In this document: piece after piece, positions 11,252 through 51,290 of the stretch
Numbering within the stretch: the stretch's first letter is position 1
Layout: each line of letters starts with the position of its first letter
Assembly: GCA_038251535.1 (NCBI GenBank)
Contig: JBBSBF010000001.1
Coordinates: 2,232-66,231 of the forward strand
DNA length: 64,000 bases
Source: Minisyncoccia bacterium
Lineage (GTDB): Bacteria; Patescibacteriota; Minisyncoccia; Phycocordibacterales; UBA9973
Direction: 5' to 3'
The notes under the pieces: generated by a model
What the model was told of the DNA's origin: nothing
Seen by the model: only the letters and a program-made list of their open reading frames with translations
Databases searched by the model: none
Translations under genes and position numbers: made by a program

Positions 11252-11671
11252 ATGAAATTATCGGACATCATGATATTTGCAAAAAGACGAAGTCTGAGAA
11301 GAATGGTTCGTCGAAAAAAGGCACCCAAACCCATACCTATCGAGGTTCAGCGTGCCGCTCGAGTGCTCGTTCATCAAAAACTCGCGCAGTTCAACCTGTC
11401 GTATGCTTTTCAGTACCATAGAGTGGCGATACGAAACCAGTCGACTCGATGGGGGAGCTGTTCGAGTAAGGGAAATCTCAATTTTAACTACCGCATCATT
11501 TTTTTACCGCCCGAACTCCAAGACTATCTGATCGTTCACGAGCTTTGCCATCTCAAAGAACTCAATCATGGGAAGAAATTTTGGGAGTTGGTATCACAGA
11601 CGATCCCAGACTACGAACGACGCAAAAAAGCGCTGCACTCGATGGATCGTATGATTGGACACCATGCATAA
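11252..11671 (+). CDS. YgjP/DUF45-family zinc metallohydrolase
   Basis: WGSCSSKGNLNFNYRIIFLP...LIVHELCHLKELNHGKKFWELV (HExxH). Start chosen at MKLSD within the 11105 ORF, because the upstream part overlaps the cupin gene on the other strand. Confidence 0.75.
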   Translation: MKLSDIMIFAKRRSLRRMVRRKKAPKPIPIEVQRAARVLVHQKLAQFNLSYAFQYHRVAIRNQSTRWGSCSSKGNLNFNYRIIFLPPELQDYLIVHELCHLKELNHGKKFWELVSQTIPDYERRKKALHSMDRMIGHHA

Positions 11672-11686
11672 TGCTATACTGTCGCT

Positions 11687-12052
11687 ATGAGTTCAAAACG
11701 AATACTCCTCCTGTGTACGCTACTGGTACTTGTCCTCTATGTAGTAGAGGTACGAAAGGAAAGCAATATTTCAACTGTTATTCCGTCAATTGAAACAACG
11801 ACCAACTATGATGAGGGCGAAACAGTTGAAAAATACATTCGAACGCTCGATGTGACAACCTTGACGGGGGTTAATCCTGTACTGGGTGGGAACATGTATC
11901 TCACAGCGGTCAGAGTGGATACGCTGTCCCATACTGCTGTGATCGAGTACGAAGATGGACACATTGCGGGGAACGCATCGATTTCTTATACCTTTGATTC
12001 GGTGACTGGGGGAGTGACTGTCGTCAAAGTTACCCCGGAGAGTACCCAATAG
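11687..12052 (+). CDS. Hypothetical exported protein (N-terminal signal/TM)
   Basis: MSSKRILLLCTLLVLVLYVV hydrophobic N-terminus; no recognisable domain. Confidence 0.45.
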   Translation: MSSKRILLLCTLLVLVLYVVEVRKESNISTVIPSIETTTNYDEGETVEKYIRTLDVTTLTGVNPVLGGNMYLTAVRVDTLSHTAVIEYEDGHIAGNASISYTFDSVTGGVTVVKVTPESTQ

Positions 12053-12108
12053 TACATTTGGTAGAAACTTGTGTATAATTGAGCTATTAGCAATAAATCG
12101 TAAATTGT

Positions 12109-12471
12109 ATGCAAGTAATATTTTTAATCGGACGAATTCTCCTCGGTGGATACTTTCTCTATAGCGGATACAATCACTTCGCAAACCTCGCAGGGATGAC
12201 TGGCTATGCAAAAATGAAGCGTGTGCCTATGGCAAAGGCATCAGTGATCATCAGTGGTGCCATGCTTGCGCTTGGCGGGTTAGCCATCCTTGCGAACCGA
12301 TTTGCAATCCTCGGGATGCTCCTCCTTGTTCTCTTTTTGATCCCAACGACATTTATGATGCATGCCTTTTGGAAGGAACAGGATCCTGCAGCTCGGATGA
12401 CAGAACGTGTCAGCTTTATGAAAAACATCGCAATCCTCGGTGCACTCCTCCTTCTTGTTTCGATTGGATAA
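12109..12471 (+). CDS. DoxX-family membrane protein
   Basis: RILLGGYFLYSGYNHF...; four TM segments; ~120 aa. Confidence 0.7.
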   Translation: MQVIFLIGRILLGGYFLYSGYNHFANLAGMTGYAKMKRVPMAKASVIISGAMLALGGLAILANRFAILGMLLLVLFLIPTTFMMHAFWKEQDPAARMTERVSFMKNIAILGALLLLVSIG

Positions 12472-12496
12472 ATGATCAAAATAATAGAGAAATAAA

Positions 12497-12519
12497 AAAA
12501 GCCACCTGTGGTGGCTTTC
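12497..12519. terminator. Bidirectional hairpin terminator
   Basis: aaaaaaagccacc-tgt-ggtggctttc between convergent genes. Confidence 0.65.
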
Positions 12520-12529
12520 AAATACTTTT

Positions 12530-12751
12530 TTAACCATGGGGAATGGGATTTCGCATTTCTGTTTTATCACATTTGTGACAAATATGTTTCCGGAAATACA
12601 CCGGCGAGCCATTTCTCTTGGATTTTCTACACGTTGTATCTCTACTAATCATATGCCATTCGTGCTCGCAAAACATTTGAATAATGATGCGGTGGAATAT
12701 AGTTTTATACCCCCGTATGGGATATGAAGCTTGACCTATAGTTACTCCCAT
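12530..12751 (-). CDS. Small Cys/His-rich (zinc-ribbon-like) protein, hypothetical
   Basis: ...CEHEWH...CRKS...CHKCDK...; convergent on the 12497 terminator. Confidence 0.35.
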   Translation of the reverse strand: MGVTIGQASYPIRGYKTIFHRIIIQMFCEHEWHMISRDTTCRKSKRNGSPVYFRKHICHKCDKTEMRNPIPHG

Positions 12752-12996
12752 AATTTGTTAATTTAGTTTTCTTCCATATTACATCTTTCACATTTTTTAT
12801 CAATAACAAAAAAGTCACCAACAGCAGGGGGATTTAGTCCAATTATTTATTTCTTTCTCATCACGAGTAGTGCAAATCCGAAAATCAATCCTAATACTGA
12901 CCAGAAAATTCCGTATTTTTAAATATCCCCTATTGGTCAGACCTGTAGGAGAAGTAGCGAGGGTAGGAATGGTGGGTACGGTGGCCTGGTATACTG

Positions 12997-14688
12997 GTGG
13001 AGATGACTCAATCTCAAGCACTCGATATATTGAAAACAGGGGCAAATGTTTTTTTAACTGGAGAACCCGGGTCTGGCAAGACTCATACGGTCAACGTCTA
13101 TGTGGAGTATCTGCGCGCGCATGGGATCGAACCAGCGATCACTGCGTCGACCGGTATTGCTGCGACACACATTCATGGGCAGACGATTCATTCGTGGAGT
13201 GGTATCGGGATCAACCGTACACTTTCACCGTACGATATCGATCGTATTGCAACCACCGAACACGTCGTCAAACGAATACAAAAAACAAAAGCGCTCATTA
13301 TCGATGAGATCTCAATGATCGATGCTACCACACTTGATATGGTCGATACTATTCTTCGAGCGATCAAGCAAAACGATGAGCCATTTGGTGGTATACAGAT
13401 CGTGATGGTGGGGGATTTTTTTCAACTGCCACCGATCACACAAGTAGGGCAACAACCACACTTTGCTTTTGTAGCCTCAGTGTGGGGTCGGATGAAGCCA
13501 GTCATTTGTTATTTGACCGAACAACATCGCCAACGAGATACTGAGTTTCTCTCCCTTCTCTCTGCAATACGAAAAAATACCTATGGTCCAGAAGATCACC
13601 GTGTTATCGAACGCAAGCTCTATCAACCAACTGACGATGTCATCCATGACTTTACTGCAACACGATTGTTTTCTCACAATAAAAATGTCGACGCGATCAA
13701 CACCGTAGAGCTCAACAAACTACCGACTCTTTCAACGTGTTTTCTGATGCAAAGCAAGGGGAGGGAAACACTTGTCGCGCAATTAAAAAAGGGTTGTCTT
13801 TCTCCCGAAGAACTCGAACTAAAGATCGGTGCAGTGGTCATGTGTACAAAAAACAACCAACAAAAGGGCTATGCAAATGGGACTCTGGGCACGGTCCTTG
13901 GATTTGAGCCGGGAACGAAGTTTCCCATTATCGAAACAAAAGATGGCATACGTATCACGATCGAACCAGCAGAATGGATCATCGAAGAAAACGGTAAAAC
14001 AAAGGCAATGATTACGCAAGTCCCGCTTCGGCTCGCGTGGGCTATTACGATTCACAAAAGTCAGGGAATGAGTCTCGATGCGGCAGTGATGGATCTGCGA
14101 GATGTCTTTGAATACGGACAAGGATACGTTGCACTCTCGCGAGTCCGCTCACTCGACGGGCTACATATTTTGGGTTGGAATAGACAGGCGTTTTTGGTCC
14201 ACCCTCAGATTTTGGAAAAAGATCAGTATTTTATGCGTCAATCCGAATCAGCGGCTGCGATTTTTGGCGATATGTCGCAGATAGAACGAGAAAAGATGCA
14301 GCACAACTTTGTCCTCGCCTCAGGAGGAGTGGTAGATCGTGTTAAGAAGAAATCAACAAAGAAAGTTGCAGGGGATACGTTTCAAACAAGTCTTGCGCTT
14401 GTGTTACAAGGCAGGTCTATCGGAGAGATTGCAAAGGAGCGCAGCTTGGCCCCCGTGACCATCATTGGGCATATAGAAAAACTCGTACAACAACGTAGGT
14501 TGGGCGTTGCCGATATTATCTATCTTATCGATAAAAAAACGTTCAGTGGATTTGAAGATATCAAGGCGACATTTGTAAGTCTGGACACATCTAAACTTAC
14601 TCCGATACGTGAACATTACAATGGTAAGTTTACCTATGAACAATTGCGGTTCGCTCGGATGCTGATAGAGCTCGGTTATCCACACTAA
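12997..14688 (+). CDS. PIF1/RecD-like SF1 ATP-dependent DNA helicase with C-terminal HTH
   Basis: Walker A LTGEPGSGKTH; Walker B LIIDEISMID; GDFFQLPPI; UvrD_C_2-like ITIHKSQGMSLD; C-terminal helix-turn-helix region. Confidence 0.85.
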   Translation: MEMTQSQALDILKTGANVFLTGEPGSGKTHTVNVYVEYLRAHGIEPAITASTGIAATHIHGQTIHSWSGIGINRTLSPYDIDRIATTEHVVKRIQKTKALIIDEISMIDATTLDMVDTILRAIKQNDEPFGGIQIVMVGDFFQLPPITQVGQQPHFAFVASVWGRMKPVICYLTEQHRQRDTEFLSLLSAIRKNTYGPEDHRVIERKLYQPTDDVIHDFTATRLFSHNKNVDAINTVELNKLPTLSTCFLMQSKGRETLVAQLKKGCLSPEELELKIGAVVMCTKNNQQKGYANGTLGTVLGFEPGTKFPIIETKDGIRITIEPAEWIIEENGKTKAMITQVPLRLAWAITIHKSQGMSLDAAVMDLRDVFEYGQGYVALSRVRSLDGLHILGWNRQAFLVHPQILEKDQYFMRQSESAAAIFGDMSQIEREKMQHNFVLASGGVVDRVKKKSTKKVAGDTFQTSLALVLQGRSIGEIAKERSLAPVTIIGHIEKLVQQRRLGVADIIYLIDKKTFSGFEDIKATFVSLDTSKLTPIREHYNGKFTYEQLRFARMLIELGYPH

Positions 14689-44474: not shown

Positions 44475-45533
44475 ATGAAAGATGCGATGCTAAACCAGGT
44501 GTTTTACCGAAAATATCGGCCAGATGATTGGAAAAAAGTCATCGGGCAAGAACACATCGTATCAGTACTCGAAGCATCCATACGAAACAACACCTTTTCT
44601 CACGCGTACCTGTTCACGGGTAGCCGTGGTACGGGCAAAACGTCAGTTGCCCGTATCTTTGCGGCTTCTCTTGGTACTAACCCCGAAGACATCAATGAGA
44701 TCGATGCCGCATCAAACCGGAGTATCGACGACATCCGAGAGTTGCGCCAAGCAGTACGCGTGTTGCCGTTTTCATCAGTGTTCAAGGTTTACATTATCGA
44801 CGAGGTACACATGTTGACCAAGGATGCATTCAATGCACTTTTGAAGACGCTCGAAGAGCCACCGGCGCATGTGATATTTATCCTCGCGACAACAGAGCAG
44901 GGCAAAGTACCTGAGACGATACTCTCGCGATGTCAGGTGTTTTCGTTCAGAAAACCAACAGAAAAAATACTTGCACAAACGCTGCGTGATGTCGCCACGA
45001 AAGAATCATTTACCATCGACGCAGAGTCGGCGTCCTTGATCGCTTTTCTTTCTGAAGGATCGTTTCGCGATGCGCTCGGCATGCTGCAAAAGATTTGCTC
45101 AGGTTCCCCGACTCGAGTGATCACGAGAGAGGTCGTAGAGATGATCACTGGCGCCCCGACGCTCTCGACCATCACCGAGCTCTACCGCGCACTGATCGTA
45201 CGAGATATCGATCTCGCGTACCAGACACTCGCTCGTGCACAGGCACATCACACTGATATGATGCTGTTGGCGAGCCTGTTTCTCGATGTTATGCGTGCAT
45301 CTCTCATGTATCGGTATGCGCCGTCGATGCGAGAGACATTTGAAGATGAGCATTCGGAGGTGTATGTCGAGCTTGTCAAAGCGGGTGCGATCGAAGGTAT
45401 GGAGGCGATATCATCTCGCGGCGTTATCGCGATGATTACGGCGATTGAGCGCATCGCGTACGCAGCAGTCCCGGCGTTACCGCTCGAACTCGCGATGATC
45501 GAGATGATGGGGATTGAATCTTCGTTGAAATAG
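44475..45533 (+). CDS. dnaX: DNA polymerase III subunit gamma/tau, short form
   Basis: Walker A FTGSRGTGKTSVARIFA; Walker B YIIDEVHML; sensor SRCQVF; 352 aa. Confidence 0.85.
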   Translation: MKDAMLNQVFYRKYRPDDWKKVIGQEHIVSVLEASIRNNTFSHAYLFTGSRGTGKTSVARIFAASLGTNPEDINEIDAASNRSIDDIRELRQAVRVLPFSSVFKVYIIDEVHMLTKDAFNALLKTLEEPPAHVIFILATTEQGKVPETILSRCQVFSFRKPTEKILAQTLRDVATKESFTIDAESASLIAFLSEGSFRDALGMLQKICSGSPTRVITREVVEMITGAPTLSTITELYRALIVRDIDLAYQTLARAQAHHTDMMLLASLFLDVMRASLMYRYAPSMRETFEDEHSEVYVELVKAGAIEGMEAISSRGVIAMITAIERIAYAAVPALPLELAMIEMMGIESSLK

Positions 45534-45565
45534 CATACATTTTGTGTTATAAAATATCAGCGTCT

Positions 45566-45760
45566 CGGGGAATCGTTCTCATGCTCCCGTTTTCTTAAAC
45601 CGAAGGTTTGTAGAAAACGCAGTGCAGAGAGAGCGAAGCTCGAATCGTAGTACGACGCGAGTCCTACTATTGGGGAATCGTCTGGTGGTGGGAATACAAA
45701 TGAATCTGCTTTCATTTGTATCCGGTTCCGAAGGAATGCAGTGCTTTTTGTAAACAAAGC
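45566..45760 (+). repeat. Cluster of partial tRNA-Gln copies (5' acceptor/D-arm and T-arm fragments) with an 11-bp perfect hairpin
   Basis: ggggaatcgt appears at 45567 and 45672 as well as at the true tRNA start 45762; gcgagtcctac at 45655 mimics the T-arm 3' half; hairpin atacaaatgaa-tctgct-ttcatttgtat. Confidence 0.5.
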
Positions 45761-45831
45761 TGGGGAATCGTCTAATGGTAGGACAACGGATTTTGGTTCC
45801 GTTTATCTAGGTTCGAGTCCTAGTTCCCCAG
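45761..45831 (+). tRNA. tRNA-Gln (anticodon TTG)
   Basis: Acceptor tggggaa/ttcccca; anticodon arm acgga-ttTTGgt-tccgt; T-arm ctaggTTCGAGTcctag; discriminator G; 71 nt. Confidence 0.85.
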
Positions 45832-45959
45832 CTTTGAGTGCAAATCACTGCAAGGGGATTTTGGTTCCGTTTACTATAGGTCCCTATTTTTAATGAACGA
45901 AGTGATTATAAAAATAGTGGATCTCGACCAGCGGAAGAGGCGAGTCCTAGTTCCCCAGC
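45832..45959 (+). repeat. tRNA-3'-end-associated element, Gln-locus copy A1
   Basis: Pseudo anticodon arm ggggattttggttccgttta, conserved core gaacgaagtgattataaaaatagtggatctcgaccagcggaagaggc, then cgagtcctagttccccagc (exact copy of the tRNA-Gln 3' 17 nt). Near-identical to 47182-47307. Confidence 0.7.
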
Positions 45960-46009
45960 AAACAAAAAACTGTATTTAATAAATACAGTTTTAAAATAGT
46001 TTTTTAATT

Positions 46010-46354
46010 TTAAGCAATGCCTAAAATCTTCCGCTCTTCCGGTGAAAGCTTTTTAAGTGCAGCTTCTTTAATTTTCAAAATTTCTTTTTCATCATCAAAG
46101 TGCAAGGCTGTTCTTGATTCATTCATAGTAAATCCATTTTTACCGTCTGAAAGTACAAATACTTCATCAACCTTTACTCTGTTAGAGTCATTTTGTTGCC
46201 CAGCAAATGCTTTAGCAACATCAGGGTTTTTGAAGAAACCAAGAGAAACAGGATTTAGTCCGTCTACGTCTACTCGGTAGACTTCGCTCATGAGAACAAT
46301 TTTATAAGAACTTAAATCTTGTCCAATGAGTTTCTCAAGAAATTTGTTTATCAT
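46010..46354 (-). CDS. Hypothetical protein (114 aa), cassette ORF 1
   Basis: Intact ORF with minus-strand terminator aaaaaactgtattta-ataaatacagtttt at 45962-45995. Confidence 0.45.
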   Translation of the reverse strand: MINKFLEKLIGQDLSSYKIVLMSEVYRVDVDGLNPVSLGFFKNPDVAKAFAGQQNDSNRVKVDEVFVLSDGKNGFTMNESRTALHFDDEKEILKIKEAALKKLSPEERKILGIA

Positions 46355-46400
46355 TGTATGGTAGTTTTAATTTAAATGGATATTATAATATTTCCTTTAT

Positions 46401-46442
46401 TTGTCAATCAATATGGTTCTAACATCGTCCCAGACCCCTAGC
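46401..46442 (+). repeat. Cassette boundary repeat R1
   Basis: ttgtcaatcaatatggttctaacatcgtcccagacccctagc. Confidence 0.65.
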
Positions 46443-46480
46443 AAATAAAAAACTGCATCAATTGTTGATGCAGTTTAAAG

Positions 46481-47101
46481 CTATCTATTCCAGAAATAGG
46501 CGAACAGGAAAATAATCACACCGCCACAGATAACAATCCATAAACGTAAGAGGAAGACCCTGATAGGAGTGTCGTGTACTTCAATAGGTGAACTAAACCA
46601 ACCAAAAGGACTTATAAAGCGTTTAATAATATTTTTCTGTATTGCTGAATAGATGATTACCCATTCTGCAACAAAAACATCTTTTCCGTTTTGGTTCATT
46701 CCTTTGATCTGCCAGATACATTCTGCGTGACATTTTGTCTCTGGAAGTTTTTTCTGTAAAAGTGTATAGGTATACATTATCTTATCTCCCATATTTACAG
46801 GGCGTAGGTAACGAATATTGTTATAACCTTTTGCAATAATTTCTGTAGGTTCGGCAAACTTGAGAATTTTAAAAATAAAACTTTCAGCTTGTGCCAGTGT
46901 GCTAATACCATGTCTAGCTAATCCGCCAAGTTTTGATTTGAAGTTTGTGGTCGTAAAGGGGTTAATATGAATGGGATTTAAATCGCCAGTCAAAAATCCA
47001 AACAGGAGTGTCCACAAGTATTTCGCCTTTTTCTTTGGGGAAGTATAGGTGTAGTTTTCTGGAATAGTAGCTATGTCTGAGTAAGATTTAAGGTACAACA
47101 T
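46481..47101 (-). CDS. Hypothetical protein with C-terminal TM (206 aa), cassette ORF 2
   Basis: Intact ORF; minus-strand terminator ctgcatcaa-ttg-ttgatgcag at 46453-46475. Confidence 0.45.
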   Translation of the reverse strand: MLYLKSYSDIATIPENYTYTSPKKKAKYLWTLLFGFLTGDLNPIHINPFTTTNFKSKLGGLARHGISTLAQAESFIFKILKFAEPTEIIAKGYNNIRYLRPVNMGDKIMYTYTLLQKKLPETKCHAECIWQIKGMNQNGKDVFVAEWVIIYSAIQKNIIKRFISPFGWFSSPIEVHDTPIRVFLLRLWIVICGGVIIFLFAYFWNR

Positions 47102-47140
47102 GCTATATGATTTTTCTGTATATTACATACTATTTATAAT

Positions 47141-47181
47141 TTGTCAATAATTCGGTTCGAATATCGTCCCAGGCCCTCAGC
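47141..47181 (+). repeat. Cassette boundary repeat R2 (tRNA-T-arm-like)
   Basis: ttgtcaataattcggttcgaatatcgtcccaggccctcagc; followed directly by element copy A2, exactly as the tRNA-Gln 3' end is followed by A1. Confidence 0.65.
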
Positions 47182-47307
47182 TTTGAGTGCAAATCACTGC
47201 AAGGGGATTTTGGTTCCGTTTACTATAGGTCCCAATTTTAAGAAAGGGAGTGATTATAAAAATAGTGGATCTCGACCAACGGAAGAGGCGAGTCCTAGTT
47301 CCCCAAC
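47182..47307 (+). repeat. tRNA-3'-end-associated element, copy A2
   Basis: ~95% identical to 45832-45959; ends gagtcctagttccccaac. Confidence 0.7.
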
Positions 47308-47364
47308 AAGTAAAAATAAGCAATAAAAAAAGAAGCAATTTTAATGCTTCTTAATAACTTTGTA

Positions 47365-47640
47365 CTAAAACCCATCTAATAAAAGTCTTGTGAACGCTAT
47401 CGTCCACATGACGATCAATCCGTATATATCTGCAGGAATTGTTTTCTGTGCCCCAGAATGTATGCCGTAGCCGATTCGACCAATGAAGATCGTACCCGAT
47501 AGAAAGGCAAAGAGGAAACTGGAGTGTATATGATGAGTAGTTATTCCAAAATATAATTCGTACCCGCCACCAATAGTTACATAAATAAATACAATGATTT
47601 TTGTTATGTTGCCCCATTTAGCAGCTTTTAGACTATTCAT
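47365..47640 (-). CDS. Small membrane protein (91 aa), cassette ORF 3
   Basis: Three predicted TM helices; preferred over the overlapping W/C-rich 47351..47617 frame; terminator hairpin at ~47318-47348. Confidence 0.4.
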   Translation of the reverse strand: MNSLKAAKWGNITKIIVFIYVTIGGGYELYFGITTHHIHSSFLFAFLSGTIFIGRIGYGIHSGAQKTIPADIYGLIVMWTIAFTRLLLDGF

Positions 47641-47685
47641 TTGTAAACGTTTTAATTAATTGTATTATAGCATTATTATTCTATA

Positions 47686-47729
47686 TTGTCAATGTAATAC
47701 AAGTTCTAACATCGTCCCACAGCCTCAGC
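47686..47729 (+). repeat. Cassette boundary repeat R3
   Basis: ttgtcaatgtaatacaagttctaacatcgtcccacagcctcagc. Confidence 0.65.
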
Positions 47730-47776
47730 TCGTAAAATGGAAATAAAAAAGTCTCTCAAAAAAGAGAGACTCTGGT

Positions 47777-48178
47777 TTAATTATTTCCCGCATTTTTCTT
47801 TGAAAGTAAATCAAGCTGCATGTCGATATCTATATCTTCCAATTTTGTATTTGGAAGATCGATTTGTAGACCAATACTTACAGAAAATTTATGCCCTTCA
47901 TTATTTAGGATACCTTGCAATTTTTCTTGAAGGAAAAGGTATTCACCCATAGGGGGTAAAATAATTTCTATTTCTTCAACAATTATTCCTTTGCGTACAC
48001 AGCTTCCTGCAAGAAACCCTATAATATGAAGTAGCTCTTTTTCAAACCCACGCATGTCTTCATTTTTGATAATAACAGGAATAGAAGCGGGTAAAGATTT
48101 TGTATAGGGAAGTATAATTTTAAAGAACTGGTTAGGTTGACGAACACAATACACAGTTTCAAAAGAAGTATTTATCAT
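47777..48178 (-). CDS. Hypothetical protein (133 aa), cassette ORF 4
   Basis: Intact ORF; minus-strand terminator agtctctc-aaaaaa-gagagact at 47748-47771. Confidence 0.45.
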   Translation of the reverse strand: MINTSFETVYCVRQPNQFFKIILPYTKSLPASIPVIIKNEDMRGFEKELLHIIGFLAGSCVRKGIIVEEIEIILPPMGEYLFLQEKLQGILNNEGHKFSVSIGLQIDLPNTKLEDIDIDMQLDLLSKKNAGNN

Positions 48179-48217
48179 CTTTTATTGTTTTTAGTATAAT
48201 GCTATATATTAACAATA

Positions 48218-48259
48218 TTGTCAATGATTTTAGTTCCAATATCGTCCCACAGCGCCAGC
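48218..48259 (+). repeat. Cassette boundary repeat R4
   Basis: ttgtcaatgattttagttccaatatcgtcccacagcgccagc. Confidence 0.65.
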
Positions 48260-48296
48260 AAACACAAAGGAATCGAACTTTTAGTATAATTAAGGC

Positions 48297-48845
48297 ATGT
48301 CAATAAAAATTACATATTTTGTTCATGGGACTACGACTGATAATGAGAACAATATTTCTTCAGGATGGAAAGATGTCCCACTTTCTGATCTCGGAATTAA
48401 GCAATCAATAGAACTAAAGGAACAAACGAAATATCAGAAATTTGATATAGTATTTTGCTCTGATTTAAGGCGCGCAGTTGATTCAGCAAAACTATCTTGG
48501 GAAGGCATGTATGAGATTATTCCTGATGCACGACTACGAGAATGTAACTACGGAAGCTTGAATGGTGCATCATCAGACATAGTTGAACCAATGCAGGAGG
48601 ACGAATGTATTGTGAATAAATTTCCAGAAGGTGAAAGTTATGAAGACGTCAAGATTAGAATTACAGACTTCCTCAAATTTCTAAAAGCTAACTATGATGG
48701 CAAACATATTGCAATAGTTGCTCACAAGGCTCCACAACTAGCTTTGGACGTTTTGATCAAAGGTAAGATATGGAAACAAGCGCTCGCCGAAGATTGGCGT
48801 AAAACTAGGTCTTGGAAACCCGGCTGGGAATATCAGGTTAACTAA
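48297..48845 (+). CDS. Histidine phosphatase superfamily (phosphoglycerate-mutase-like) protein, cassette ORF 5
   Basis: ITYFVHGTTTDNENN (RHG-type catalytic His in the hGtT context)...GWKDVPLSDLGIKQS...; 182 aa. Confidence 0.65.
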   Translation: MSIKITYFVHGTTTDNENNISSGWKDVPLSDLGIKQSIELKEQTKYQKFDIVFCSDLRRAVDSAKLSWEGMYEIIPDARLRECNYGSLNGASSDIVEPMQEDECIVNKFPEGESYEDVKIRITDFLKFLKANYDGKHIAIVAHKAPQLALDVLIKGKIWKQALAEDWRKTRSWKPGWEYQVN

Positions 48846-48848
48846 TCA

Positions 48849-48876
48849 AAGTTCTAACAACGTCCCACAGCGCCAG
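48849..48876 (+). repeat. Cassette boundary repeat R5
   Basis: agttctaacaacgtcccacagcgccagc. Confidence 0.6.
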
Positions 48877-48912
48877 CAAGTAAGTTTCAACATAATTTGA
48901 TATAATCATTTC

Positions 48913-49491
48913 ATGAATGAAGAAATGAAAAGTGGTCCGAGCCCTGAAGAAAAACAAAGATTAGAAAAGATTGCACAAGAAAAGGAAGAAAGTGAATGGT
49001 TACAAGATTACTTATCGAGACAACCTCAAGAGGAAGTGACTACTCCAGAAGAAGCTGCTGAGCTCGTGGCACGTTTTGAAAAATTGACATTGGCCTTTGA
49101 TGCAGCCCATTCTCTTGAGGCATTGCTATCAATAGAAGAAATTTCTTCTGACCTTGCGGAGTTGTACCTCAATGCCCCCATACTCGACAATCCATTACGG
49201 ATAATTGCGGATATAAAAACTTTAGAAAAGCACAATCCTACACACGTACCTATCTATAAAGCAAAGATTGAGAGGCTTCAGTCTTTGGTGTTGAACGACG
49301 AAGAGAAAAGAATATATAACTTGCGAATGGCTGCGCGTAAAGATTATGATTATATGAATATGATATTGGGATTTATTAAAAAATGTTCTTCTTTACCCAG
49401 TGATCAAGTTGAAGCACTTGCAAAACGAAGTAAGACTTACTCAAACGCTATTGGAATACTCAGAAACAATAAAATTGTTCACGATCTTTGA
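48913..49491 (+). CDS. Hypothetical protein (192 aa), cassette ORF 6
   Basis: Intact ORF between R5 and R6. Confidence 0.45.
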   Translation: MNEEMKSGPSPEEKQRLEKIAQEKEESEWLQDYLSRQPQEEVTTPEEAAELVARFEKLTLAFDAAHSLEALLSIEEISSDLAELYLNAPILDNPLRIIADIKTLEKHNPTHVPIYKAKIERLQSLVLNDEEKRIYNLRMAARKDYDYMNMILGFIKKCSSLPSDQVEALAKRSKTYSNAIGILRNNKIVHDL

Positions 49492-49505
49492 TTTTGGCGC
49501 AAATA

Positions 49506-49533
49506 GGTTCCAACATCGTCCCACAGCGCCAGC
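49506..49533 (+). repeat. Cassette boundary repeat R6
   Basis: ggttccaacatcgtcccacagcgccagc. Confidence 0.6.
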
Positions 49534-49846
49534 AAAATAGTTATAAAAAAACCACCCGAAGGCAGTTTAAAATAAGTGTCCAAGTAAGAACAGACTAGGA
49601 CCGTTAAAGGTACGGCCGACGTTCTCGAGAATGATCTTGCTTTGTATTTCGAGTCAGTCATATCAAATGCAGTCTGTATACTTAGACACTTATTAGGTAA
49701 TCAATTCTTCATTCAGCTCTATCTTCTGGGAAATGATAAGGATGTCCGGTCTTGTACTTCAAGATCCTTTGCAGAAGCGGGTGCAGAGATGACAGAAAAC
49801 GTAATTCAATTTGAATGTAGCATAGCTCTTAAAAAAGTTCAAACAT

Positions 49847-49863
49847 CAACCTAGACCTTCAGC
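49847..49863 (+). repeat. Cassette boundary repeat R7 (degenerate)
   Basis: gttcaaacatcaacctagaccttcagc; followed by AAATAAAAAG and a minus-strand terminator, as for R1. Confidence 0.4.
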
Positions 49864-49901
49864 AAATAAAAAGAGTGGCTGTTAGCCACTCTGCAAGTAT
49901 A

Positions 49902-50243
49902 TTATTTATTGCAATATTTTTTTGCTGCGGTATGTAAAACTTTAGGAATATTATTCAGAGCAAGAATCGATTTCGTTTGATATACATACGAAAGTTTCAA
50001 GGATTGAAAATTTTTAACAAAATATTGTTCCACTGATTCTATCGAATCAGTTTCTACTTTTTCATTTCTTGCACATTTACAGATGAACTGAATGAAATCA
50101 CTTTCACACTCAGCTATTTTGATATGAGGTACATTTCTGAGGGGAACAGTTTCTATTTTAGAATTTTCTCTCCGCCTTGTGAATAATACAATTGCAATTA
50201 TTATTGCAACAAAAAGCACTGATAAAATAAATATTAATGTCAT
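49902..50243 (-). CDS. Hypothetical protein with N-terminal TM (113 aa), cassette ORF 7
   Basis: Intact ORF; minus-strand terminator agagtggct-gtt-agccactct at 49872-49892. Confidence 0.4.
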   Translation of the reverse strand: MTLIFILSVLFVAIIIAIVLFTRRRENSKIETVPLRNVPHIKIAECESDFIQFICKCARNEKVETDSIESVEQYFVKNFQSLKLSYVYQTKSILALNNIPKVLHTAAKKYCNK

Positions 50244-50284
50244 ATCTATATATTTTATTCTACTATACTCAATTTAATTTATAT

Positions 50285-50309
50285 GTCAACATCAACCCAA
50301 ACAGCTAGC
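50285..50309 (+). repeat. Cassette boundary repeat R8 (weak)
   Basis: gtcaacatcaacccaaacagctagc. Confidence 0.25.
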
Positions 50310-50344
50310 GAACACTTTTCGGTCAGATTTGATACAATGAAATT

Positions 50345-50554
50345 ATGCAAAAAATAGCAACACGGATATTTATCTACGCATCTATCGTTTTTGGAATTAT
50401 CGGTATGTTGATTGTGGTGACTGCTTCTGGACCAGATATGCCGGATTCAACTGCAACCAAGGTATTGATCCGGCTCTTGTTCGCTACGGTCTTTGTGATC
50501 CTGCCTTCGTTTGCTCTAAGTCTGGCCAGTAAGTACCTAAACGATAAATCATAA
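50345..50554 (+). CDS. Small two-TM membrane protein (69 aa), cassette ORF 8
   Basis: Hydrophobic ORF after R8. Confidence 0.35.
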   Translation: MQKIATRIFIYASIVFGIIGMLIVVTASGPDMPDSTATKVLIRLLFATVFVILPSFALSLASKYLNDKS

Positions 50555-50579
50555 GTACACCACATCCTTAGTTTGTAAA

Positions 50580-51290
50580 TTGGAAATAAAAAAAGCACCT
50601 ACGGGAAAACAAATGAAACTGGTAACGTACAAATTTTTAGAAAACATCATCAACGTTTTTCGCGGGCGTACTATCCTTTGGCACATCTTATTTTGGGGAG
50701 TCAGCTTTGTGTTAGTGAGCAGCGGATTTGACTGGTGGTACTTTGAGCACACTCGTGGAGCGACGGTCCAAGCGATATTGTTCCCACCGGTATTTCTCGG
50801 AATGCTTGTTCCGTTTGGTATGTTCTTCGTGCTCATCACCTGTGGAATGGTGCGAAAAAGTACATCTCTCATACACACTGCCTTTGCCACTGCTCAAGCG
50901 GGCATCCTCGGCTTTGGTATTTCTTCACTCTACAAAGTGTTCACTGGTCGCTCAGGACCACCTGGATTTAGGTCAATGGTGAGTACACTATCCGACACGA
51001 GTCATGGGTTTAAGTTTGGATTTTACCGAGGTGGGGCCTTTCAAGGCTGGCCTTCGTCGCATACTACGGTGGCATTTGCTATGTCAGCCGCTCTTGTTGC
51101 GCTCTATCCCGGCAACGACACAAAGAGCAAGGTCATTCGTTTTGTCGCCATGCTCTATGCGCTCTATATCGGCATCGGAGTCTCAGTCAACATTCATTGG
51201 TTTTCTGACTTTGTCGCCGGAGCTATCTTGGGGACACTCATCGGGCTCGTCGTCGGCAAAGCTTTTTACAACCGATTAAAAAGGCAATAA
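50580..51290 (+). CDS. PAP2-family (type 2 phosphatidic acid phosphatase-like) membrane phosphatase
   Basis: Multi-TM; PAP2 motif elements R(S)GPPGFRS, PSSHT, S...H...D (SVNIHWFSD). Confidence 0.75.
   Translation: MEIKKAPTGKQMKLVTYKFLENIINVFRGRTILWHILFWGVSFVLVSSGFDWWYFEHTRGATVQAILFPPVFLGMLVPFGMFFVLITCGMVRKSTSLIHTAFATAQAGILGFGISSLYKVFTGRSGPPGFRSMVSTLSDTSHGFKFGFYRGGAFQGWPSSHTTVAFAMSAALVALYPGNDTKSKVIRFVAMLYALYIGIGVSVNIHWFSDFVAGAILGTLIGLVVGKAFYNRLKRQ

Follow-up and report, generated by a model that had tools for sequence, protein, structure and literature searches.

Why should the short interval in front of a tRNA gene carry broken pieces of that same gene, and what do such pieces record? The question is raised by a 64-kb stretch of candidate phyla radiation (CPR)/Patescibacteria DNA (the window, whose positions serve as coordinates throughout), in which dnaX (44475-45533) is followed by an intact tRNA-Gln (UUG) gene (45761-45832, + strand; called by ARAGORN and matched to the Rfam tRNA family with 63 bits). 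Two partial copies of tRNA-Gln, named here U1 (45567-45670) and U2 (45671-45760), occupy the space between them. An earlier reading of the same DNA, hereafter the original prediction, took these pieces for the expected scars of repeated recombination at an active tRNA hotspot. In our preferred explanation, to which we give a probability of about one half, incoming DNA brought a replacement for the tRNA-Gln gene more than once, and U1 and U2 remain as non-functional 5′ stubs of the copies that it displaced. The dnaX product is 72-80% identical to proteins of 'Candidatus Paceibacterota' metagenome-assembled genomes (MAGs), and no closer relative of it was found in a database of 5.8 billion proteins. 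The relatives compared below are fetched loci, labelled L001 and onward, whose relatedness is given as dnaX identity to the window.

Partial copies in front of the intact gene

The first 13 nt of tRNA-Gln (TGGGGAATCGTCT) are found exactly at 45671-45683 as well as at the start of the intact gene (45761-45773). The upstream occurrence had been described as a 13-nt 5′ end at 45672 fused to a divergent D loop; it does exist, begins at 45671, and on alignment extends over tRNA positions 1-23 (U2 stub, 45671-45693, + strand), with 20 of the 23 nt identical (TGGGGAATCGTCTGGTGGTGGGA vs TGGGGAATCGTCTAATGGTAGGA). All three differences are A-to-G changes in the D loop (positions 14, 15, and 20), at sites that are invariant across 12 tRNA-Gln alleles of relatives. 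The local alignment of U2 to the tRNA has a z-score of 8.9, and the similarity has sharp edges, with blocks of 23 and 7 nt surrounded by unrelated sequence. The 7-nt block, GGTTCCG (45724-45730, + strand), corresponds to tRNA positions 35-41, reaching from the last anticodon base into the 3′ strand of the anticodon stem. A possible second block of homology, it is not significant by itself. The would-be anticodon arm of U2 is taken up by a perfect 11-bp hairpin with a 6-nt loop (ATACAAATGAA/TTCATTTGTAT; 45694-45721, + strand, arms 45694-45704 and 45711-45721); the original prediction had already noted this hairpin.

The U1 stub, GGGGAATCGT (45567-45576, + strand), is an exact match to tRNA-Gln positions 2-11 and lies precisely where it had been reported. 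This 10-mer occurs three times in the window, always at this locus, compared with an expectation of 0.12 from shuffled sequence, and none of 100 shuffles reaches three. Its GGGG starts 11 nt past a promoter-like -10 box, which is the point at which the tRNA of relatives starts. The alignment of U1 as a whole to the tRNA (z 2.5) consists only of blocks of 10 and 9 nt. Near its end, U1 contains a T-arm-like segment, GACGCGAGTCCTAC (45654-45667, + strand), resembling the 3′ half of the T loop and the T stem (tRNA positions 54-62); the mimic proposed earlier is thus present, at this position and not at 45651. The window contains three occurrences of its core, GCGAGTCCTA (45657-45666), where 0.06 would be expected; the remaining two are 3′ tRNA-Gln fragments at 45940 and 47288. 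These belong to two units downstream of the tRNA, E1 and E2, whose version of the segment (GAGGCGAGTCCTA) agrees with that of U1 at 12 of 13 positions, and U1 aligns locally to E1 with a z-score of 5.4. Past the stubs, similarity between U1 and U2 is not significant (z 1.3).

Both stubs lie on the + strand upstream of a + strand tRNA, that is, in the same orientation and on the correct side for a 5′ fragment, and the view that they are true partial tRNA-Gln copies of the kind left by recombination is borne out. Each of the three copies has its own leader: 'gtctc' for U1, 'tat' for U2, and CAAAGC for the intact gene. The U2 leader is the one carried by most relatives' tRNA-Gln; that of the intact gene is an inverted repeat of the gene's own trailer and is unlike the leaders in all relatives. 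From the end of the stub to the next tRNA start there are 94 nt after U1 and 67 nt after U2.

The promoter-like element, an extended -10 box (TGTGTTATAAAAT, 45543-45555, + strand), lies 10 nt past the dnaX stop codon (45531-45533). In L085, L086, L002, and L121 this box recurs between dnaX and tRNA-Gln as TGTGGTATAAAAT or TGGTATAAAAT, and L089 has it immediately 5′ of tRNA-Gln. Judged by this sequence agreement, it appears to mark the ancestral position of the tRNA-Gln promoter. A simple sigma-70 scan of 45400-46100 detected no promoter besides this box; since no other is detectable, transcription probably starts at the old promoter and runs through the stubs, yielding a structured 5′ leader of ~205 nt that RNase P would remove. 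A minus-strand open reading frame (ORF) across the same region (45557-45757, 66 aa, TTG start) is featureless and was judged spurious.

A lineage-specific insertion and a recurring pattern

Is the region an old and conserved feature of the locus? A comparison of the orthologous interval between dnaX and tRNA-Gln, which the original prediction had proposed, gives a clear answer. The ~195 nt carrying the pieces are a lineage-specific insertion: the spacer measures 227 nt here and 31-59 nt in six relatives with dnaX 72-80% identical and the conserved gene order Dus, dnaX, tRNA-Gln (L002, L082, L085, L086, L088, L121), all six of which have the extended -10 box TG(T)GGTATAAAAT inside the short spacer. 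Three further loci with a gene between dnaX and tRNA-Gln (L089, L093, L119) were checked as upstream insertions, and no tRNA fragments were found there. Altogether, the U1/U2 region is missing from ~15 other related lineages, including the closest at 76-80% dnaX identity, and BLAST of U1 and U2 against all fetched loci returned matches only to the tRNA 5′ end.

The original prediction had also named what would speak against it, namely a single structured RNA conserved with covariation in relatives. The region is missing from relatives, as just described, and it is not a conserved structured RNA. The window was searched against Rfam with the gathering cut-offs, 45400-46100 with E ≤ 10, and six related loci as well; nothing but tRNAs came up, and in 45400-46100 only the tRNA itself. 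ARAGORN, run with introns allowed and with an 80% threshold, called no tRNA in U1 or U2. At a relaxed threshold it gave two 'permuted tmRNA' calls (45741-46070 and c1364-1571), which lack Rfam support and were taken as false positives from tRNA fragments, as was an intron-containing tRNA call (c1366-1475).

The same pattern does recur at greater distance. A scan for partial copies was made around every tRNA, covering 33 tRNAs of 25 CPR loci, and upstream 5′ copies were found at tRNA-Gln only and in three lineages, represented by the window, by L004, and by L006/L109/L112. The latter two also have stacked, promoter-proximal 5′ stubs, with the intact tRNA-Gln 44-111 nt away. In L004 (dnaX 51% identical), positions 1-29 stand right behind the promoter and are followed by a 16-nt replacement, positions 35-45, and a fold-back palindrome; the intact gene begins 96 nt after the start of the copy. 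In the L006 lineage (dnaX 49% identical, tRNA-Gln 100% identical to that of the window), TGGGGAATC lies at -155, and at -111 positions 1-18 are followed by a 37-nt GC-rich palindrome and positions 18-25, with 35-48 nt from stub to next start. The stubs end at tRNA positions 11 and 23 in the window, 9 and 25 in L006, and 29/45 in L004; in both the window and L004, the upstream copy matches the tRNA again from position 35, in the anticodon loop. From one lineage to another the filler is unrelated in sequence, and there is no conservation of architecture either. A closer look at L004 (9047-9146) showed that its upstream pseudo-copy ends in a perfect fold-back palindrome, GTCCAAG-TAA-CTTGGAC, derived from the 3′ strand of the anticodon stem, which is a signature of template switching.

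Could the region nevertheless act today as a structured 5′ leader or small RNA, for example as a tRNA-like decoy modulating RNase P processing or tRNA-Gln expression? Its predicted folding is very stable. U1 (taken as 45566-45670) reaches -41.2 kcal/mol as RNA (z -4.55; z -4.17 as DNA) and includes a long imperfect hairpin of ~64 nt (45573-45636, + strand) in which an outer stem of 8 bp encloses a perfect inner one of the same length (CGTTTTCT/AGAAAACG) and the cap is AAACC-GAA-GGTTT, and leader plus tRNA are predicted to fold with a z-score of -7.41. The lack of a separate detectable promoter for the intact gene makes transcription of the region probable, G-U pairs let a predicted 12-bp helix between U2 and the end of U1 survive the three A-to-G changes, and 5′ copies upstream of tRNA-Gln arose in three lineages. 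However, palindromes fold well whatever their origin, U2 alone as RNA folds no better than shuffles (z -1.21), and a functional leader sits badly with the absence of the region from ~15 related lineages, with the lack of any conservation among the three lineages that have stubs, and with the lack of an Rfam family match. A functional role of this kind is in our judgement very improbable, and the present-day stubs probably do nothing.

A further concern is whether the arrangement exists at all, or whether assembly made a chimeric tandem by collapsing strain variants or repeats near the tRNA. The assemblies of several lineages break within ~80 nt of tRNA-Gln (L001, at 45610, L002, L006, and L112), which is consistent with repeats or population heterogeneity at the site, and the Logan assembly is fragmented between 45610 and 45855. 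One Logan contig, L118, equals window 45855-47207 exactly and is bounded by the E1/E2 repeat. The independent assembly of run SRR19962010, on the other hand, reproduces the window up to 45610, and with it the first part of U1, as well as 45855-47207, with 0 mismatches. The analogous structure of the L006 lineage is repeated in three independent contigs with 1-2 nt differences, and repeats of 10-23 nt, being below the k-mer length of assembly, do not suffice to produce a mis-join. An artefact is thus hardly to be credited.

Turnover at the tRNA-Gln locus

That the tRNA is a recombination hotspot, as the original prediction held, is seen downstream of the gene and in the gene itself. The gene content downstream of tRNA-Gln differs in every relative, and it differs between strains as well: L107 shares with L109 its retained upstream sequence (55 nt) yet departs from it downstream of the tRNA. 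The tRNA-Gln alleles of L002, L006, L082, L085, L086, L088, L089, and L093 were compared with that of the window. No difference is found in L089 (dnaX 76%) and L006 (dnaX 49%), two differences in L082 and L085 (both dnaX 79%), 14 in L086 (80%) and in L002 (76%), and 28 in L088 (78%). Such strong discordance between allele identity and dnaX identity implies that the tRNA-Gln gene was replaced repeatedly at a conserved locus. The locus is a genuine recombination hotspot whose turnover is visible on an evolutionary time scale. The claim that it is active, as opposed to ancient and static, holds in this sense of evolutionary turnover and does not follow from the stubs themselves, which are no sign of present activity and of which U2 has already decayed.

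Several features of the related islands were noted in passing. The island at tRNA-Gln in L085 (11388-19577) is of the defence type: it encodes two ThsB-TIR proteins, T5orf172, an Alw26I-type restriction enzyme, and two methylases, and ends in a large serine recombinase. In L089 (16479-17041), a large serine recombinase gene abuts or overlaps tRNA-Ala. A conserved element of ~120 nt follows tRNA-Gln directly in L085 (11168-11290), L108 (650-788, - strand), and L109 (2231-2360), which represent three lineages, the distant one of L006 among them; it contains GCACGAGACGCGT and TGCATACCCGCTGAGAGCGGTAAYCAGAAC followed by a terminator hairpin and shows a compensatory C-G to T-A change in L109. The element has no counterpart in Rfam or in the window and may be a small RNA that accompanies the tRNA-Gln allele when it moves.

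The stubs might also have a purely local origin in replication errors, without any mobile DNA. A tRNA unit of ~90-105 nt would have been tandemly duplicated by slippage or unequal crossing-over, and the spare copies wrecked by fold-back template switches and deletions. The copies are spaced 104-105 and 90 nt apart in the window, 96 nt in L004, and 111 nt in L006, in each case about one tRNA plus spacer. Perfect or near-perfect palindromes are found at the lesions, including the 11-bp hairpin of U2, the fold-back of L004, and the 37-nt palindrome in the D loop of L006, and the inverted repeat around the intact gene, described below, extends that gene's own acceptor-stem palindrome. The heterogeneity of the break points and the failure to find a recombinase gene point the same way. 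In common with tRNA pseudogenes made by tandem duplication, the partial copies lie about one gene unit apart, in the same orientation and directly upstream, with point decay in U2 at invariant positions. In contrast to such pseudogenes, similarity here is confined to end blocks of 10-23 nt instead of being collinear over most of the tRNA, and outside these blocks it is all-or-none (hence the z-score of only 2.5 for U1), where decay would be graded. Each of the three copies has a different leader, and the filler has no template in the 64-kb window, unlike what template switching to nearby sequence would leave. The pattern is also tied to island and allele turnover, and replication errors explain neither the allele discordance nor the restriction of the pattern to the tRNA that seeds the island. 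On balance, we find such an origin somewhat unlikely.

The downstream side and a proposed origin of the stubs

If DNA has repeatedly entered at tRNA-Gln, what lies on the other side of the gene? E1 (45855-45959, + strand) is a 3′ stub of tRNA-Gln that starts 23 nt after the tRNA and reproduces positions 28-45 and 54-72 exactly, with a two-hairpin module of ~65 nt, termed X, inserted in its T loop. E2 (47204-47310, + strand) is a slightly decayed second copy in which hairpin 1 is disrupted; the whole 165-nt unit is 83-93% identical, the E unit recurs together with its 22-nt leader (47182-47310), and both E1 and E2 start at tRNA position 28. It is here that the original prediction requires amendment. 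When DNA integrates into a tRNA gene (tDNA), the gene is made whole again and a fragment of one of its ends is shifted aside. In the Islander collection (Hudson, Lau & Williams 2015; PMC4383910), 3′ fragments downstream account for 3760 islands against 159 with 5′ fragments upstream, the latter being ~4% (159/3919). The scars to be expected are accordingly the 3′ ones at 45855-45959 and 47204-47310 and those of the array described next, and the upstream stubs are not the expected kind.

Between tRNA-Gln and a conserved META gene lies an integron-like array (45833-50600) with a GC content of 0.34-0.39, compared with ~0.44 in the flanks. It is organised by a tRNA-derived site of 27-28 nt, GTTCyAAyATCGTCCCAnnnCnCCAGC, present in seven co-oriented copies on the + strand (46416, 47155, 47703, 48233, 48851, 49507, and a degenerate one at 49837; span 46416-49863). 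The site has six matches in the window against 0.00 expected, aligns to tRNA-Gln positions 35-48 and 58-72, and is not palindromic. Each copy bounds a single small cassette with one gene, the products including MaoC-like, histidine phosphatase, and unknown proteins, and the cassettes lie in either orientation, each with its own promoter and terminator. In L082 (dnaX 79%; 11650-13336), the same site bounds four different cassettes, and one copy is present in L119 (12089); no homologue of the window's cassette proteins was found in any relative's locus, only the flanking META-domain gene being shared. As in integrons, small unrelated single-gene cassettes each end in a co-oriented site-like repeat, and content turns over as the site is kept. 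Unlike integrons, the array has no intI or attI, its site is a derivative of a tRNA 3′ half and not an attC imperfect palindrome, its cassettes have promoters and terminators of their own in both orientations, and it is anchored on a tRNA gene.

Module X (~65-78 nt) occurs at 45868-45945, 47217-47293, and 1379-1456, in each case within the T loop of a 3′ tRNA fragment (Gln or Tyr). The copy at tRNA-Tyr (1373-1472 with its borders, + strand) is 85% identical, has two compensatory base-pair changes in the long hairpin, and lies between an inverted (1373-1386) and a direct (1457-1472) copy of the tRNA-Tyr 3′ part. A second tRNA-Tyr 3′ fragment (AAATCCTGCCC) is found at 1676-1686, ~360 nt downstream of the gene, so that tRNA-Tyr also bears stacked 3′ scars. 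A 361-aa ORF beside these fragments was considered as an integrase and rejected, being a membrane/PAS-like protein. A covariance model of X finds the three copies in the window and none in 25 CPR loci, and X has no Rfam match. Set against miniature inverted-repeat (MITE) and palindrome-associated (PATE) transposable elements, X is present three times in the 64 kb, always in the T loop of a 3′ tRNA fragment, and in none of 25 related loci, and the fillers of U1 and U2 are single-copy. Assignment of U1 and U2 to the X family was dropped, as their scores (7.9-8.2 bits) are not significant. The cassette array and the X module are more novel than the stubs.

The intact gene itself is enclosed by an imperfect inverted repeat of ~24 nt (45737-45852), which, like the long hairpin of U1 and the GGTTCCG block, the original prediction had not noted. 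The left arm, TGCAGTG...CAAAGC (45737-45760, + strand), matches the right arm, GCTTTG...CACTGCA (45833-45854, + strand), by way of CAAAGC/GCTTTG and TGCAGTG/CACTGCA, in inverted matches of 13 and 7 bp. The right arm is at the same time the leader of E1 (TTTGAGTGCAAATCACTGCAAG) and has a second copy at 47182-47203. Intact tRNA-Gln thus sits at the apex of an imperfect palindrome in which the 5′ flank (TGCAGTGC..CAAAGC) pairs with the 3′ flank (GCTTTG..GCACTGCA), lengthening the acceptor stem to 13 bp and beyond, as is seen in no relative; folded as DNA, tRNA plus flanks has a z-score of -7.84. Reverse-complemented U1 and U2 were also compared with the E units for mirror-image similarity, which is not significant past the 22-24 nt flanks.

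These repeats suggest another route to the same arrangement, in which intact tRNA-Gln, carried between the two arms, would have inserted as a cassette into the anticodon loop of a resident gene, splitting the resident into U2 (positions 1-41) and E1 (28-72) with the core of the anticodon arm duplicated; such a self-replacing cassette would be mobilised in trans by the recombinase of the array cassettes. U2 and E1 do span the whole tRNA and overlap only at positions 35-41, and the inverted repeat is significant, with six extra perfect base pairs past the acceptor stem plus the 7-mer. The right arm and E recur as a unit at 47182-47310, and the array sites are tRNA-Gln derivatives conserved across species where the cassettes differ. 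Yet U2 lacks positions 24-34 and its 7-mer has no significance alone, U2 is more diverged than E1, and U1 is left without explanation. The left arm has no second copy, other genomes yielded no cassette of this kind, and the comparison of reverse-complemented U2 with E1 past 24 nt is not significant (z 1.3). We regard this route as distinctly improbable.

The preferred explanation, in which the stubs are relics of gene replacement by incoming DNA, would proceed as follows. In the ancestral state, dnaX would have been followed by the -10 box and then by tRNA-Gln, with a spacer of 30-60 nt. Incoming DNA with its own tRNA-Gln, or at least the 5′ part of one, would have recombined into the resident gene at least two times, each event keeping the old 5′ end at the old promoter (U1, then U2) and setting the new copy further downstream. 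Most of the inserted DNA between stub and new gene would later have been deleted, with hairpin-rich remnants of 67-94 nt staying in place, and the matching 3′ stubs (E1, E2) and tRNA-derived cassette sites would have piled up on the other side. What is shown comprises the copies, the fact that relatives lack them, the recurrence in other lineages, the hotspot, and the exchange of alleles; the sequence of events, the kind of recombinase, the deletions, and the transcription are inferred. Rare tDNA islands of the 5′ type would be expected to have just such a 5′ fragment, upstream of the gene and oriented like it. Known crossovers fall in the anticodon loop, a known tyrosine-integrase subsite, in the T loop, or at the T/acceptor junction, and displaced fragments of the anticodon type start at position 28, like E1 and E2 (PMC4383910). 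Against these subsites, U2 (positions 1-23, then 35-41) and E1 (from 28) have breaks in or next to the anticodon stem-loop, which on sequence grounds would fit an anticodon-loop site; X interrupts the T loop, but U1 stops at position 11 and the stubs of L006 at 9 and 25.

A number of observations weigh against this explanation. No recombinase domain was detected among the 47 ORFs of the window, there is no element or cargo gene between any stub and the next tRNA start, and an intact example of a real element between a 5′ stub and tRNA-Gln was not found. The fillers have no homologue in 120 fetched loci or in a viral collection, which leaves a foreign origin hypothetical. The L006 lineage has no 3′ partner stubs downstream. 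The heterogeneous end-points (9, 11, 23, 25, 29/45) fit illegitimate joins or later deletions better than a single site-specific crossover, and the three changes in 23 nt of U2 against none in 37 of E1 are awkward if both come from one event. Beyond the window, in ~18 lineages, of which the relatives were judged by precomputed Pfam calls only, no tyrosine recombinase was seen, and large serine recombinases are present in L085 and L089. Viral contigs were scanned for the array site, X motifs, and the 3′ end of the tRNA; apart from chance matches in GC-rich phages, the scans recovered only att sites of unrelated proteobacterial prophages and tRNA arrays of jumbo phages.

How does the locus compare with known tRNA-anchored islands? 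It resembles the Islander type (PMC4383910) in having a same-orientation 5′ fragment upstream of a regenerated intact gene, an apparent U2/E1 break at the anticodon stem-loop, which is a recognised crossover subsite, and a tRNA that is a proven hotspot of integration and variation. It differs in that only 67-94 nt of hairpin-rich filler, in place of an island of at least 2 kb or a tyrosine integrase, separate fragment and gene, and in that two stubs with heterogeneous ends are stacked within 200 nt and 5′ and 3′ stubs flank one gene. With tycheposon-type islands (Hackl et al., bioRxiv 10.1101/2020.12.28.424599) it shares a streamlined genome, an island adjoining one full-length tRNA, scattered partial tRNA copies, variability that peaks next to the tRNA, and the lack of an active element, as in most such islands. 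Neither a tyrosine recombinase nor a tycheposon hallmark gene is seen here, the recombinases of related islands (L085, L089) being large serine ones only, and a regular array of single-gene cassettes on one conserved 28-nt tRNA-derived site as well as 5′ stubs upstream set the locus apart. The stubs are most likely a known type of scar in a rare 5′ configuration. The locus works like the tDNA-anchored additive islands of the Islander and tycheposon kinds, from which it departs in having no integrase or element, and it is integron-like in cassette organisation only.

A more speculative extension, which we consider quite unlikely as it stands, is that in this Patescibacteria clade tRNA-Gln is itself mobile cargo. 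The anticodon arm and 3′ half of the tRNA would be the site of a recombination system whose recombinase is encoded elsewhere or carried by transient elements. This system would build the integron-like array on the 28-nt site and occasionally insert a whole replacement tRNA-Gln into the resident gene, shedding 5′ stubs upstream and 3′ stubs downstream, with X serving as a functional arm or folded recombination substrate.

Taken alone, the stubs are a modest finding, non-functional scars that record the history of the locus and lengthen the tRNA precursor. CPR/Patescibacteria have tiny genomes and their gene exchange is little understood, and the locus provides a tRNA-anchored exchange site. What is unusual about it is that the anchoring tRNA is replaced along with the cargo, that the rare 5′ type of stub is present, and that a tRNA-derived site organises cassettes with no integrase nearby. 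If its mechanism were worked out, the locus could reveal how accessory genes, including defence genes such as those of L085, move in uncultured symbionts.

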